From: a virus
Taxonomy: Duplodnaviria; Heunggongvirae; Uroviricota; Caudoviricetes
DNA length: 26,225 bases
IMG/VR virus record: IMGVR_UViG_2537562013_000006
Location: 1 to 26,225 of that record
Direction: 5' to 3' (one strand)
The notes under the pieces were generated by a model. The model searched no databases. It saw only the letters and a program-made list of their open reading frames with translations, and was not told where the DNA came from. This document shows positions 15,230 through 26,225 of this stretch, one piece after another. Positions within the stretch are counted from its first letter, which is position 1, and each line of letters begins with the position of its first letter. A program made the position numbers and the translations under genes.

Positions 15230-15802
15230 TTAGCCCATCATTTTTCTATACGCCTCTGCAGCCTGCTCCGGCGTTAAGTTGGTAATTTCTGTTCTGACGG
15301 GTCCTCCATCAGCGCCAGTCACTTCATTTTTGACGTTGTCTTTAAACGCCTGAACAGAAACATGACGCCCAAGCAACTCAAGGTTTTTAACCTTATCAGG
15401 CCACTTAATCTTTTTAAGGATCCCGACCATTTCTCTGTCATCTCCTCGCCCCTCAAACATTTCAGCGAGGTTAAATCCACTCAGGTACCGACGCCACGAT
15501 TCCGGCCACGCAGACAGAGGCTTAATACTTAAATCGTCCTCCAGGATGTCAGCCACATCGAGCCTGTCGATCTCAACCAGTCGCATCAGCACATAATTAG
15601 CATCAATGCCCAGTTGATCAATACGCTCCTGCTTTAGCTCGTTAATACGGGCGCGTATCTCAGGTTTACCGTATAGTTCAGCCCCCGTAACATGTGCTCG
15701 CCTGGAGACGTAGCCTGCGCGAATAGCTGCTTGTGTAGCATTCAGATCGACAAGAAACTCGCGACAAAACACCTCGTGTTTTGCTTTCAGCTTCTTAGTC
15801 AT
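15230..15802 (-). CDS. Terminase small subunit (190 aa)
   Basis: N-terminal motif [25 protein letters not shown] is typical of the Terminase_2-type small subunit; lies directly upstream of the large subunit. Confidence 0.75.
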
Positions 15803-21146: not shown

Positions 21147-21220
21147 TTATACGAAAACGGATTACTCAGCAATACAGCAATTCTATGTCATCCTAGATTA
21201 AAATATCCGATAACGCATAA
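21147..21220. promoter_or_regulatory. Candidate operator region between the cro-like and cI-like genes (imperfect inverted 16-mers)
   Basis: TTATACGAAAACGGAT at 21147-21162 and its imperfect inverted partner ATCCGATAACGCATAA at 21205-21220 (12/16 match). Short palindromes CTATAG (21132-21137) and TGTATACA (21231-21238) are also present. Promoter hexamers were not confidently assigned. Confidence 0.3.
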
Positions 21221-21254
21221 TCACCGTCCCTGTATACAACATGGATGAATCCAA

Positions 21255-21929
21255 ATGATTGATACTACCGATATCCTTTCTCAAAACATCAAGTACCTGA
21301 TGGACAAAGCCAAGATAAGCTCGATAACTGAGCTGGCACGTCGGTTACAGCTGAACCAACCAACGCTACACAGGCTGGTATCAGGAGAGGTGAAAGATCC
21401 GAAATACGCAACGTTAAAGCAGATCGCCGACTACTTCCACGTGTCACCAATAGACTTGGCAGAAAGGAGCCTTCAAGAAATGGAGAAAGAGGACGCGACA
21501 GGTATAAAAACGTATATTTCTCTTAGGTTTAATAAAGTACCTGTTTTGGGAAACACTCAGCTAGGCGTTGGAGGACTTTGGAGCGACACCCAATATTCAG
21601 TAGGTAGCAGTGATGGTTTCATATACTGGCCGACAAAGGATGAAGATGCATACGCCCTGAAATGTGTTGGTGATTCAATGATGCCTAGAATCAAAGAGGG
21701 GGAGTTCGTAATCGTCGAACCCAACCACGACTACACTCCTGGTGATGAAGTACTTGTGGTTACCCGGGAAGGTGAGGTCATGGTTAAAACCTTCTTGTTC
21801 GAACGCGATGGCCTGTTCCATCTAATGTCTGTAAATGAAGATCATCCACCAGTCAGAGTACCACGCGAAAACATTGAAAAAATCCATTACGTGGCGGGGA
21901 TCGCCAAATCCGCGCTACGTATGTACTAA
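21255..21929 (+). CDS. CI-like repressor with C-terminal LexA/S24 peptidase domain (224 aa)
   Basis: N-terminal HTH (ITELARRLQLNQPTLHRLVSG), C-terminal S24 fold with Ser in GDSMMP and Lys in VMVKTF about 38 residues later. Confidence 0.85.
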   Translation: MIDTTDILSQNIKYLMDKAKISSITELARRLQLNQPTLHRLVSGEVKDPKYATLKQIADYFHVSPIDLAERSLQEMEKEDATGIKTYISLRFNKVPVLGNTQLGVGGLWSDTQYSVGSSDGFIYWPTKDEDAYALKCVGDSMMPRIKEGEFVIVEPNHDYTPGDEVLVVTREGEVMVKTFLFERDGLFHLMSVNEDHPPVRVPRENIEKIHYVAGIAKSALRMY

Positions 21930-21988: not shown

Positions 21989-22013
21989 ATTTGCAAAATA
22001 ATTCATTTTCGTA

Positions 22014-22042
22014 TTGACACAAAATCCCATAACGCATATAAA
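22014..22042 (+). promoter_or_regulatory. Near-consensus sigma70 promoter with no downstream ORF
   Basis: TTGACA (22014-22019), 17-bp spacer, TATAAA (22037-22042). Followed by a hairpin plus T6 (CGCAT-AATTA-ATGCG-TTTTTT, 22051-22071) and then about 270 bp without a plausible ORF. Confidence 0.35.
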
Positions 22043-22347
22043 TACGATGTCGCATAATTAATGCGTTTTTTAATACTGGCTCTTTAACAAACTGAACCGC
22101 GTGACAGGTAAGCCGCAGTACTCCTGGCAAAACGAAATAGCACCCGATGGGATCGAGGTAAGCGCCGAGTCCGTATGCGTACGGTAAGCGTAGAGGACAA
22201 CACCGCGACAAACTGATAAGTCACGCAAGTTGAAACGCCCCGACGATGGGGCGCTTAGTTCCTTTTGGGGTGGGGTGAAGATCAGTCCATTGAGTCAATC
22301 CGAAGTTCAGCATCTACCACTACACCACCACCAAAGAGAACTGCTAA

Positions 22348-22872
22348 TCATCTGGCAGGTTGTAACGGTGCAGGAGTTTTGCCACTGACTTCTATATTTC
22401 GGGGAAATTTATATTCAGCGGAGCATTTATGACACTTGAGAATTTTATAAGCGGCATTAGAAGTATGGTATTGAAGTATAGACTTCATACCCGACTCATA
22501 GCATGTAGTACAAAGATAATGAGGCTTGAACTCAGGATCGTCAGTAGGCTTCAGTACATAGACCACCGTATTGGTAATCGGGTGGTACATTTCATAGTTC
22601 ATTTTCTCACTATCCCAATCCTGTTTCTTTTCCAGAAGGGATTCGAGTTCAACAATGCGCTGTTTAGCTTCGTTCAAAAGCTCCGTTAGTGCGAATTGTC
22701 CAGTACGCGCATCAATTAGTTTATCAAGTAGATCGATAGTTTTACTTTTAACATTGTAATCCACCTGCAACGCATTAACTTCTTTTGCTAAATCAACAGC
22801 ACCTTTCAAAGCACCACCAGCACTAGTGGCCGCCTCAGTTATACGCCGTACAAGTCCTTTTTCTTCAGACAT
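22348..22872 (-). CDS. Hypothetical coiled-coil plus C4 zinc-ribbon protein (174 aa), low-GC cargo gene
   Basis: ATG at 22872. Helical N-terminal half; C-terminal C-X2-C-X22-C-X2-C (CTTC...CHKC). GC about 40 percent by eye versus a visibly GC-richer backbone. Transcribed opposite to both neighbours. Confidence 0.55.
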   Translation of the reverse strand: MSEEKGLVRRITEAATSAGGALKGAVDLAKEVNALQVDYNVKSKTIDLLDKLIDARTGQFALTELLNEAKQRIVELESLLEKKQDWDSEKMNYEMYHPITNTVVYVLKPTDDPEFKPHYLCTTCYESGMKSILQYHTSNAAYKILKCHKCSAEYKFPRNIEVSGKTPAPLQPAR

Positions 22873-22889
22873 CTTAATTCTCTCTAAAA

Positions 22890-22940
22890 CTATAGGGGTA
22901 AAGAGATATTAGCCGAATTCTCGCTGTAGGGGTACAGAGA
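22890..22940. repeat. Two direct 17-bp repeats upstream of the 174-aa gene
   Basis: CTATAGGGGTAAAGAGA (22890-22906) and CTGTAGGGGTACAGAGA (22924-22940), 15/17 identical, 34 bp start to start, in the divergent control region. Confidence 0.35.
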
Positions 22941-23011
22941 GAGCCATCTCGTCTGACGTGGTTAAAAGCAGGCATTCGCTGACATCCAAGTAATTGCTGT
23001 GTGTAGCCTTT

Positions 23012-23037
23012 GCCCGCCTCAAGTGACGGGCTTTTTT
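23012..23037 (+). terminator. Hairpin plus T6 in the leader of the rightward early operon (terminator/attenuator-like)
   Basis: GCCCG-(10-nt loop)-CGGGC followed by TTTTTT, about 60 bp upstream of the first early gene. Confidence 0.4.
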
Positions 23038-23096
23038 ATGTCTGAAAGCGCACTCGCAACAGCGTGCTCCCCGATATGAAAAAAGGAATACAACCG

Positions 23097-23246
23097 ATGA
23101 AACCTGAATACCTCCATCGACTGACGGGGCGCGATGTTCTCCGTTATCGCCGTAAAAACTTCGATTTGATGACCGGTCTGGCCGTTGCCACTGCGCTCGG
23201 TCTGATCATCACTTTCATTCTCCTTGTAGCGAGGACCACAGTATGA
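23097..23246 (+). CDS. Small membrane protein (49 aa), first gene of the rightward operon
   Basis: The track ORF begins with GTG at 23064. ATG at 23097 has AAGGA 9 nt upstream. C-terminal hydrophobic helix (LMTGLAVATALGLIITFILLVA). Stop overlaps the next start (ATGA). Confidence 0.45.
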   Translation: MKPEYLHRLTGRDVLRYRRKNFDLMTGLAVATALGLIITFILLVARTTV

Positions 23247-23545
23247 GTTTAGAAACCAGTCTCGAACTTAATAATCAACTTCTGGCACAACATAATGCGC
23301 TGCTTGAACGTCTTATCCGCACAATGGCATCAGGCATTGTTATGCATCCTGACACGATTTCACGAGTGCAGGAATGTCGGGATACAGCAACTGAAACTGA
23401 AAATATGTCAGCGGCAATGACACTGGATGATCTGGAGTTCAGCGACGTTATCGCACTGGCTGGTTTCTACCCGGTAGCCACCCCTATCACAGAAGACATG
23501 CTGCAACGTGCTGTTGCCTACCGTGATGCTGAAGGCGATGGTTGA
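23243..23545 (+). CDS. Hypothetical acidic early protein (100 aa)
   Basis: ATG at 23243, translationally coupled to the upstream gene; Asp/Glu-rich; no recognised motif. Confidence 0.5.
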   Translation: MSLETSLELNNQLLAQHNALLERLIRTMASGIVMHPDTISRVQECRDTATETENMSAAMTLDDLEFSDVIALAGFYPVATPITEDMLQRAVAYRDAEGDG

Positions 23546-23685
23546 TCCTCCAGTTAGCAAAAGGGGGTTACCGGGCAGAAGCTATTGCAATTCTGGAAAA
23601 ACAGGGAGCCAGGAAACTTGGTGAAGTAACGGATGAAAATCTCGCTGAAGTAATCACCCTGGCTGAAAAAGCACTGGAGGGTTAA
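23542..23685 (+). CDS. Possible small ORF (47 aa, TTG start) filling the gap before the nuclease gene
   Basis: Open frame from TTG at 23542 (GAAGG 6 nt upstream) to TAA at 23683-23685, ending 2 nt before the nuclease ATG. Reads [47 protein letters not shown]. No ATG; weak call. Confidence 0.25.
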
Positions 23686-25605: not shown

Positions 25606-26225
25606 TCACTCAGGAATCTTAATCTTCCTCAATTCTTTATTTAGTTCACAGATCTTCTTCTTAGACGGGAAAGTATCATACATCCAAAAACCAACAGTCT
25701 CTAAAACTATTGTCATAACCATATACACAAGATAATTTAAAAGGCCTTCATTTTGCCCTATGGAAATAATGCAGATAATAGAAAAAAGGATAAACAGCAC
25801 AAAACACAGAAAGGAAAACAGACGACTAATAATAAATAAAAAACCTGAAAAATTAACATTGATGAAAAACACTCCGTTATCTTTCTCTATATAATTCTGA
25901 AGCTTAATCACCTGATTTATATACTGTCTTTTTTCTAATCTATTGCAAATGTAAATAACATCACTTCGGTTATAAGAAGATTGCAATTTCAGCGCATCAC
26001 GAATAATTTTATCATTTATTCTTTTTTCTATGGCACTCTTATCCTCCTTATCCAGATAACGTTCATACTTAACTAAATATAAAATTAACTTCTTGACATA
26101 TTTAGGCTCTTTATACTTATAATTAAAAATGATCTTTCTTATCCAGACTCCCATAACAATCAAACATGAAAAAATATATCCAGCTATTTTCTCCAGATGC
26201 TCTGTATGGTCAATCAAGTATTGGA
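25606..26225 (-). CDS. AT-rich gene for a multi-pass membrane protein of unknown function, 5'-truncated by the window edge
   Basis: The track start at 26217 is TTG and the frame remains open to the window end, so the true start is probably outside. Very low GC. Predicted TM segments near residues 10-30, 120-150 and 160-180 of the listed ORF. Convergent with the early operon. Confidence 0.5.
   Translation of the reverse strand, partial: QYLIDHTEHLEKIAGYIFSCLIVMGVWIRKIIFNYKYKEPKYVKKLILYLVKYERYLDKEDKSAIEKRINDKIIRDALKLQSSYNRSDVIYICNRLEKRQYINQVIKLQNYIEKDNGVFFINVNFSGFLFIISRLFSFLCFVLFILFSIICIISIGQNEGLLNYLVYMVMTIVLETVGFWMYDTFPSKKKICELNKELRKIKIPE

Follow-up and report, generated by a model that had tools for sequence, protein, structure and literature searches.

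The gene on the minus strand at positions 22348-22872 of the window, by which we mean the whole 26,225-nucleotide stretch of DNA analysed here, very probably encodes an antiphage protein of the Rip1 (ring interacting pore 1) family that is made by the resident prophage, with the mechanism of the characterised family member predicted by homology. Comparisons of its sequence and of a structure model identify the 174-residue product as a full-length homologue of the Rip1 protein of Escherichia phage HK446, and sequence, fold, motif and genomic setting, which are the properties of Rip1 that can be tested in silico, all agree with this assignment. A 'hypothetical protein' thus gains a specific and testable antiphage function, although a predicted one. 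The gene itself is unsurprising to a specialist, being a rather divergent allele in a family for which both mechanism and structure were published in 2026. The added interest is modest and lies in three features of its setting, namely an allele swap, a sieB/sas module with an RprA-like tail before rip1, and a consistent antisense placement. The features of the region are as follows:

21255-21929, plus strand: cI-type repressor gene (Pfam Peptidase_S24, 5.3e-18, and HTH_26, 3.7e-12; phrog_4 match)
21991-22058, plus strand: putative PL-like early promoter (TTGACA at 22014-22019, 17-nt spacer, TATAAA at 22037-22042), overlapping operator-like repeats
22233-22255, no strand assigned: GC-rich hairpin, 93 bp past the rip1 stop codon, with a 9-bp stem on both strands, at the end of the conserved flank
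22266-22851, no strand assigned: allelic cassette, consisting of the coding body minus its first 7 codons and about 80 bp of 3' UTR, with a divergent allele elsewhere
22348-22872, minus strand: rip1-like gene, ATG start, 174 aa, from the list of open reading frames and homology to PDB 9oox Rip1
22861-22985, plus strand: sas-like antisense RNA region, covering the rip1 start codon, Shine-Dalgarno sequence and 5' UTR, aligned to P22 sas
22983-23041, plus strand: RprA-like 3' module, with a terminator hairpin at about 23007-23030 and a T-run; sub-threshold match to Rfam RF00034

The open reading frame at 22348-22872 is a real gene and not a chance one, since identical copies are found in E. coli genomes and diverged homologues of the protein exist. 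Among 5426 complete E. coli genomes, 27 match its DNA at 99% identity or more, and the 15 listed of these 27 are 100% identical to it. Both ETEC H10407 and the O103:H2 strain 12009 carry the gene, annotated as 'hypothetical protein', and its presence in such pathogenic E. coli would bear on which therapeutic or typing phages these strains abort. The low GC content seen in the original prediction (about 40 percent, against a richer backbone) was confirmed by measurement, with 0.410 for the gene (GC3 0.337) versus 0.507 for the whole window, and a composition this rich in AT occurs in only 1.8% of 525-bp windows. The orientation and the position beside the repressor had also been read correctly: it is a single prophage gene inside the immunity region, on the strand opposite to both of its neighbours, which lie on the plus strand, and it is convergent with the S24/HTH (cI-type) repressor gene across a gap of 418 bp. 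The early gene block begins at 23064 on the plus strand and includes a DUF2800/PD-(D/E)XK exonuclease and a gp2.5-like SSB. Comparison with the prophage of BH100 placed the boundaries of an exchangeable immunity module, which holds both the cI-type repressor and the rip1-like gene, at about 20924 and about 22982. The prophage in the window has at least one lesion, a deletion of about 460 bp that splits its phrog_6784 gene.

The assignment to Rip1 draws on searches by sequence and by structure. When the PDB was searched by phmmer with the protein alone, one entry was returned, chain L of 9oox, designated 'ring interacting pore 1 (Rip1)', with an E-value of 8.4e-45 and an alignment of residues 3-159 to residues 3-160 of this 164-residue chain, and a profile of the family matched 9oox Rip1 with an E-value of 3.7e-70. 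Entry 9oox, released on 2026-02-04, is a cryo-EM structure of Escherichia phage HK446 Rip1 together with the small terminase of Enterobacteria phage T6. Direct comparison with the HK446 protein (HK446_037) by BLASTP gave 48% identity over 160 aa (E 9e-55). At the level of structure, a Foldseek search of the PDB with an AlphaFold2 model of the protein returned chains M and L of 9oox (E 2.5e-11 and 1.4e-10), the former with a target-normalised TM score of 0.78, an rmsd of 2.6 Å and 47% identity; the next match after these two Rip1 chains had an E-value of 0.8, compared with a significance cut of E <= 0.001. The original prediction had put the gene forward as a candidate for a novel function, a claim that by its own standard would fall on confident homology to a characterised family. 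Such homology, over the full length, is what was found, so the claim of novelty fails, and the comparison of models by AlphaFold and Foldseek on which it was to be checked likewise led to 9oox Rip1 (the chain M match above).

The architecture of the protein had been described well. Its cysteines, Cys121, Cys124, Cys147 and Cys150, form exactly the C-X2-C-X22-C-X2-C motif that had been reported, and the long helical N-terminal half is recovered in the AlphaFold2 model (built on a 32-sequence alignment), in which residues 2-34 and 39-90 are helical and precede a beta-rich C-terminal domain. The mean pLDDT of this model is 75, with 87-92 over residues 81-160 and just 52-67 in the N-terminal third. 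The segment of residues 6-34 is amphipathic, with a mean hydrophobic moment of 0.41 (z = 2.2 versus shuffled sequences), and rich in small residues, and the same segment of HK446 Rip1 is similar in both respects. Conservation of the cysteines among homologues, on which the zinc-ribbon proposal had been made to depend, is clear: all four are invariant in the 32-sequence alignment at identities down to 21%, and of 187 full-length relatives 184 have a CxxC...CxxC motif, most often with a spacer of 22. W86, Y93, L76 and a KSILQ motif are also invariant or nearly so, again down to 21% identity. One further candidate feature was rejected as general to the family, an in-frame internal start that would give an Esc-like truncated inhibitor, because Met90 and Met94 are not conserved across it.

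The likeness to HK446 Rip1 extends beyond the alignment. The two proteins belong to the same length class (164 aa in HK446 versus 174 aa here) and share N-terminal amphipathic helices, a C-terminal Cys4 domain and a matching predicted fold, and both genes have a sieB/sas-type upstream module and lie, in antisense orientation, within an early lytic operon of their temperate phage. Their differences lie in the host phage and in details of the locus: HK446 is lambdoid, whereas the window has another backbone, whose related phages carry a VapE-type primase and their own DNA polymerase; the HK446 gene abuts N, whereas the gene in the window is convergent with cI; and the C-terminal tail of the window protein is 10 residues longer. 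Since 52% of the residues differ from those of HK446 Rip1, the rings that trigger the protein may also differ. Closer protein homologues, at 76-89% identity, include Citrobacter- and Edwardsiella-named proteins, and one from Tatumella is 66% identical.

A tblastn search of phage genomes showed that the family also occurs in Mu-like phages of Pseudomonas (D3112 orf25, DMS3, JBD30, MP38 and others). D3112 orf25 is 29% identical to the rip1-like protein (E 1e-20) and is flanked, on the opposite strand, by genes that resemble a Neisseria prophage DNA-binding protein and a hypothetical protein, which we infer to be terminase genes. It belongs to the same family, is a lone gene opposite a lytic operon and keeps the Cys4 motif, but it sits in the late operon, not in the immunity region, and is without a sas-like module. 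The location of the published Pseudomonas Rip1, as given in the summary in PMC13434031, is that of these D3112-type homologues. In prophages, homologues were found beside the repressor, beside N or between tail-side genes, and the pattern of a single gene on the opposite strand recurs in HK446, D3112, Edwardsiella and Pantoea.

Rip1 was described by Patel et al. (Nature 651:1060, 2026, doi 10.1038/s41586-025-10075-1), in work of which PMC13434031, PMC13601566 and PMC12908700 offer summaries. According to the condensed account in PMC13434031, Rip1 of HK446 and of Pseudomonas is a single-protein prophage defence that is non-toxic when expressed alone, and infected cells that contain it round up and lose membrane integrity. 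[quoted passage not shown] As also outlined there, cryo-EM revealed 12 Rip1 subunits around an 11-mer ring of small terminase, with the N-terminal part of Rip1 forming an amphipathic helix and the C-terminal half touching the ring, and the complex is a pore that releases dye from liposomes (PMC13434031).

By homology, the allele in the window most likely acts as HK446 Rip1 does. In a lysogen the rip1-like protein would be present and harmless. When a superinfecting phage reached late gene expression, its small terminase or portal would assemble into ring oligomers, around which the Cys4-containing C-terminal domain of the rip1-like protein could dock, and on this template about 12 Rip1 subunits would then assemble into a ring of their own. 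The amphipathic helices at the N-termini of these subunits would enter the inner membrane and form a pore, and the cell would be permeabilised or lysed before progeny mature, which would amount to protection of the abortive type. Both zinc binding and a role in ring contact are assumed for the Cys4 site. The small terminase of the resident prophage (15230-15802) was compared with the T6 small terminase of 9oox by phmmer, which gave no link between the two and returned SF6/SPP1-type terminases only.

The sequence upstream of the gene is of a type already familiar from another exclusion system, and the proposal that the gene occupies a rex- or sieB-like slot for accessory genes of the lysogen proved sound, because the upstream module is that of lambda and P22 sieB. 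About 100 nt upstream of the rip1 start codon match 139 phage records. The same module is found directly 5' of sieB in P22 and lambda and directly 5' of rip1 in HK446 and in a Pantoea prophage; HK620 is also among the matching phages, and in Hafnia phage Pocitis76 the gene behind the module encodes a genuine SieB (Pfam, 3.7e-21). On the plus strand, the segment 22861-22985 aligns with the P22 sas sequence (PMC13397905) over its whole length at 70% identity overall, with a core of 82.6% identity by blastn, and it contains two direct repeats CTRTAGGGGTAMAGAGA at 22890-22906 and 22924-22940 (CTRTAGGGGT), i.e., 2 matches compared with 0.11 expected. On the minus strand the same segment is the 5' UTR of rip1 and presumably also its promoter module. 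In P22, sas is described as an antisense RNA that regulates the translation of sieB and on which SieB/Esc critically depends. The resemblance of the window to the SieB/Esc/sas system of P22 and lambda thus comprises about 100 nt of homologous sequence upstream, within which the sas RNA sequence lies, antisense placement within a PL-type operon, and an accessory or exclusion gene of the lysogen. The proteins, by contrast, are unrelated (the window protein has no Pfam match to SieB), a conserved in-frame internal start such as that of Esc is absent from the rip1-like protein, and the sas-like region of the window, unlike P22 sas, continues into an RprA-like terminator module. A sas-like module does not accompany every Rip1 gene, since none was found ahead of the homologues from Edwardsiella, Pseudomonas phage D3112 and Chitiniphilus.

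Given a 5' module of the sieB/sas type and a PL-like promoter in antisense orientation, we infer that rip1 would be expressed in the lysogen and turned down during the phage's own lytic growth by antisense RNA and early transcription. A scan of the minus strand upstream of rip1 for sigma-70 consensus sequences found no promoter, and expression in the lysogen is argued from the homology of the 5' region to that of sieB. It is plausible, again by analogy, that a sas-like RNA limits Rip1 synthesis during lytic growth of the resident or a related phage; such an RNA could have its own promoter or be processed from the early transcript of the PL-like promoter, which is predicted to run antisense through rip1. 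According to Ranade and Poteete (1993), sas reportedly lets P22 itself escape SieB. More tentatively, and with considerable doubt on our part, Rip1 may have been placed in the old sieB expression module in enterobacterial phages, where the resident phage's own sas-like RNA would shut down Rip1 translation in lytic growth and so provide an RNA-based self-immunity to a suicide protein that lacks a protein antidote.

The sas-like region runs straight into an RprA-like segment, both in the window and in the group of phages related to vB_EcoM-606R2. The Rfam model RF00034 scored 45.5 bits (E 7.5e-5) over 22928-23041 on the plus strand, in comparison with a gathering score of 70, and because this score is under the gathering score, 22928-23041 is not an RprA gene; at gathering thresholds, Rfam returned nothing in the window. 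The 3' core is one base off K-12 rprA, and the resemblance is confined to the 3' part of about 60 nt with the terminator, the 5' part being sas-like. In the prophage of BH100, which has a different immunity module, homology of the backbone resumes exactly at 22983, which makes the RprA-like segment the left boundary of the conserved backbone of the early operon. Plasmids of E. coli carry copies of the segment that are about 86% identical. Conceivably, the RprA-like 3' end acts in trans on the targets of host RprA.

On the other side of the gene, the putative promoter at 21991-22058 shares its repeats D1 and D3 and its inverted repeat I1 with the cI/cro intergenic region (21149-21221). The consensus scan accepts only -10 hexamers with T in the sixth position and hence missed the TTGACA-17-TATAAA arrangement at 22014-22042. 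To judge from its sequence, this strong promoter-like site directly after the repressor gene looks like the equivalent of OL/PL, and a transcript from it is predicted to run antisense through rip1 toward the early genes. The arrangement is in keeping with other members of the family and with sieB: HK446 rip1 and the sieB genes of lambda and P22 lie antisense inside the PL operon, beside N or gene 24, and the rip1 genes of Pseudomonas phages lie antisense inside the late operon, such that rip1 opposes a lytic transcription unit in every architecture examined. With transcription opposed in this way, the gene would tend to be expressed in the lysogen and to suffer interference in the phage's own lytic cycle. 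Between the promoter and the gene, the hairpin at 22233-22255 resembles a terminator on either strand, its T-runs being weak, and a search for structured RNA in 22075-22275 gave no convincing folding signal (z of +0.6 on the plus strand and -1.8 on the minus strand).

By alignment with related phages, the coding body of rip1 is a swapped allele within near-identical flanks. By blastn, vB_EcoM-606R2 and the window are 98.0% identical up to 22265 and 95.9% identical from 22852, with no DNA match between these positions. Four sequenced phages of the 606R2 group match the left flank; the right flank matches in three, the fourth record ending earlier. In this group the slot corresponding to 22266-22851 holds a rip1 allele whose protein is 44% identical to that of the window. 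Matching flanks on either side of an unmatched slot imply that the exchanged unit is the coding body minus seven codons, together with the 3' UTR. Neither half of the protein escapes the divergence between the two alleles; the C-terminal domain, at 38% identity compared with 51-57%, has diverged slightly more. Exchange of coding bodies among immunity modules that are otherwise nearly identical might change the set of terminase or portal rings to which the protein responds. Taken together, the allele swap, the reuse of sieB/sas with its RprA-like tail and the antisense placement suggest self-immunity at the RNA level for a defence with no known protein antidote, and they provide hints as to how a one-protein abortive system may spare its own phage and how the specificity of Rip1 may diversify.

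Several other readings of the gene have to be weighed against a Rip1-type defence protein. The original prediction proposed either an exclusion factor or a protein that targets RNA polymerase, in the latter case on account of a likeness to Ogr/Delta or DksA/TraR proteins. An RNA-polymerase-binding factor or inhibitor of this kind, with a coiled coil and a zinc ribbon, is extremely improbable. The likeness is generic, consisting of long helices and then a Cys4 motif with a 22-residue spacer, and goes no further than a Cys4 motif after helical sequence, in which a similar Cys spacing is by itself of no diagnostic value, whereas Ogr/Delta and DksA/TraR proteins are small RNA-polymerase binders that are not membrane-active and match the window protein neither in sequence nor in fold. 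Pfam hits to Ogr_Delta (PF04606) or zf-dskA_traR (PF01258) were nil even at E <= 1, and no such structure was present in the top 50 listed of 274 Foldseek matches in the PDB (E <= 10), among which only Rip1 was significant. In addition, the protein is homologous over its full length to Rip1, which binds terminase rings and not RNA polymerase. The proposed targeting of RNA polymerase thus fails for want of a Pfam or fold match, while the part of the prediction that spoke of exclusion is borne out by the Rip1 homology and the sieB-type module.

That exclusion would work by the mechanism of SieB, given that the rip1-like gene fills the expression slot of sieB, is only marginally easier to believe. 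The upstream module and the antisense RNA region are indeed as in P22 and lambda sieB, yet the Pfam model of SieB (PF14163) does not match the protein, whereas the SieB of Pocitis76 behind the same module reaches 3.7e-21, and the homology to Rip1 spans the whole protein; only the regulatory module is common to sieB. A somewhat less remote, although still unlikely, reading is that the protein is a true Rip1 homologue with another job, such as a lysis-timing or holin-like helper of the phage's own burst, or that it is a decayed allele. The prophage has a lesion in the split phrog_6784 gene, phages that are otherwise almost identical differ greatly in the rip1 coding body, and the scan found no promoter. 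Yet the open reading frame is intact and invariant among the 15 listed of the 27 matching genomes, every residue that is invariant in the family is kept, and divergent alleles with a conserved fold are typical of arms-race genes; the orientation against lytic operons and the sieB-type module fit lysogen defence rather than a late lysis gene. A Rip1-type defence protein of the lysogen is thus the reading that we prefer.

Genes of this family are numerous. A profile search of a set of 1.84 billion representatives returned 2669 cluster representatives at E <= 1e-3, 1064 of them at E <= 1e-10, and the protein in the window matches phrog_1244, a PHROGs family of unknown function, at 1.8e-43. Scans of the protein with Pfam, NCBIfam 20.0 and PADLOC 2023 gave sub-threshold noise only, and the Rip1 family is not present in the searched copies of Pfam, PADLOC 2023, NCBIfam 20.0 and the PHROGs annotations; with more than 2600 cluster representatives and libraries that are blind to Rip1, many such genes are missed. 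[quoted passage not shown] Unlike Rip1, Tab is an unrelated protein of 83 aa that blocks tail assembly via the tape measure protein and forms no pore, and it has a protein anti-defence partner.

The start codon and 5' UTR of rip1, the gene at 22348-22872 (-) encoding a 174-aa homologue of the pore protein Rip1 of HK446 (ring interacting pore 1), are overlapped on the opposite strand by a homologue of sas, the antisense RNA of the 5' region of the P22 superinfection exclusion gene sieB. This homologue and three further features in or near the early region of the window are as follows:

21991-22260, + strand: promoter-like site (TTGACA-17-TATAAA at 22014-22042), operator-like repeats and leader
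22861-22985, + strand: antisense-RNA homologue (P22 sas), containing the repeat CTRTAGGGGT twice
22928-23041, especially 22983-23041, + strand: RprA-like element (Rfam RF00034, 45.5 bits)
25606-26217, - strand: second opposite-strand gene (phrog_10579, function unknown)

Modules of the sas type lie upstream of sieB in P22, lambda and Pocitis76 as well as upstream of rip1 in HK446 and Pantoea, and no Rfam family covering the homologue in the window was found.

The promoter-like site, which is strong and located directly 3' of the cI-type repressor gene, is overlapped by operator-like repeats that are also present in the cI/cro intergenic region, and downstream of it lies a leader of approximately 200 nt, with a GC-rich hairpin (22233-22255) at its end. 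A related motif, AGTTCCYTTTGGGGTG, is also found in the prophage of E. coli BH100.

The RprA-like element scores below the gathering score of RF00034 (45.5 versus 70 bits), and the core within the approximately 60 nt at its 3' end is one base off the conserved 3' portion of rprA from E. coli K-12 and is followed by a terminator hairpin and a T-run. The early genes begin directly downstream of this element, and the conserved backbone that the window shares with a BH100 prophage has its left boundary here. Copies of the RprA-like element with approximately 86% identity also occur on E. coli plasmids, where they adjoin a RES/Xre toxin-antitoxin pair.

Within the early region, the phrog_6784 gene is present in two pieces, a 100-aa ORF and a 47-aa ORF (23243-23685), which are the result of a deletion of approximately 460 bp. 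Since the same gene is a single CDS of approximately 300 aa in the related phage vB_EcoM-606R2 and in the prophages of E. coli ETEC H10407 and BH100, the window prophage has suffered a lesion in one of its early genes.

The second opposite-strand gene, the start of which is close to the window end, is very AT-rich (29% GC), with the SSB-like gene on one side and, on the other, the position that a DNA polymerase gene takes in related phages. No match for its protein was obtained in Pfam, NCBIfam or PADLOC; hydrophobic stretches in the predicted product suggest a membrane protein, and the gene resembles a further moron or defence candidate.

In Escherichia phage HannyBb (locus L011, 1140-1460, - strand), an opposite-strand ORF of 106 aa is found directly downstream from the sas-like module; it is unannotated, the record having overlapping + strand ORFs instead, and its product contains hydrophobic stretches and has no match in Pfam. 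The rip1-equivalent slot of the BH100 prophage, between repressor and early genes, holds a small + strand ORF (locus L012, approximately 2310-2500), at which no gene is annotated in RefSeq and whose translation by eye suggests a zinc-ribbon peptide of approximately 60 aa with a CxxC...CxxC motif. An Edwardsiella ictaluri prophage has a rip1 homologue with 76% identity that is likewise convergent with an S24 repressor gene, and the 510-aa gene that precedes it (locus L006, 3406-4938), which shows a faint ORC/CDC6-like match, could be a further defence gene occupying the rip1 slot.
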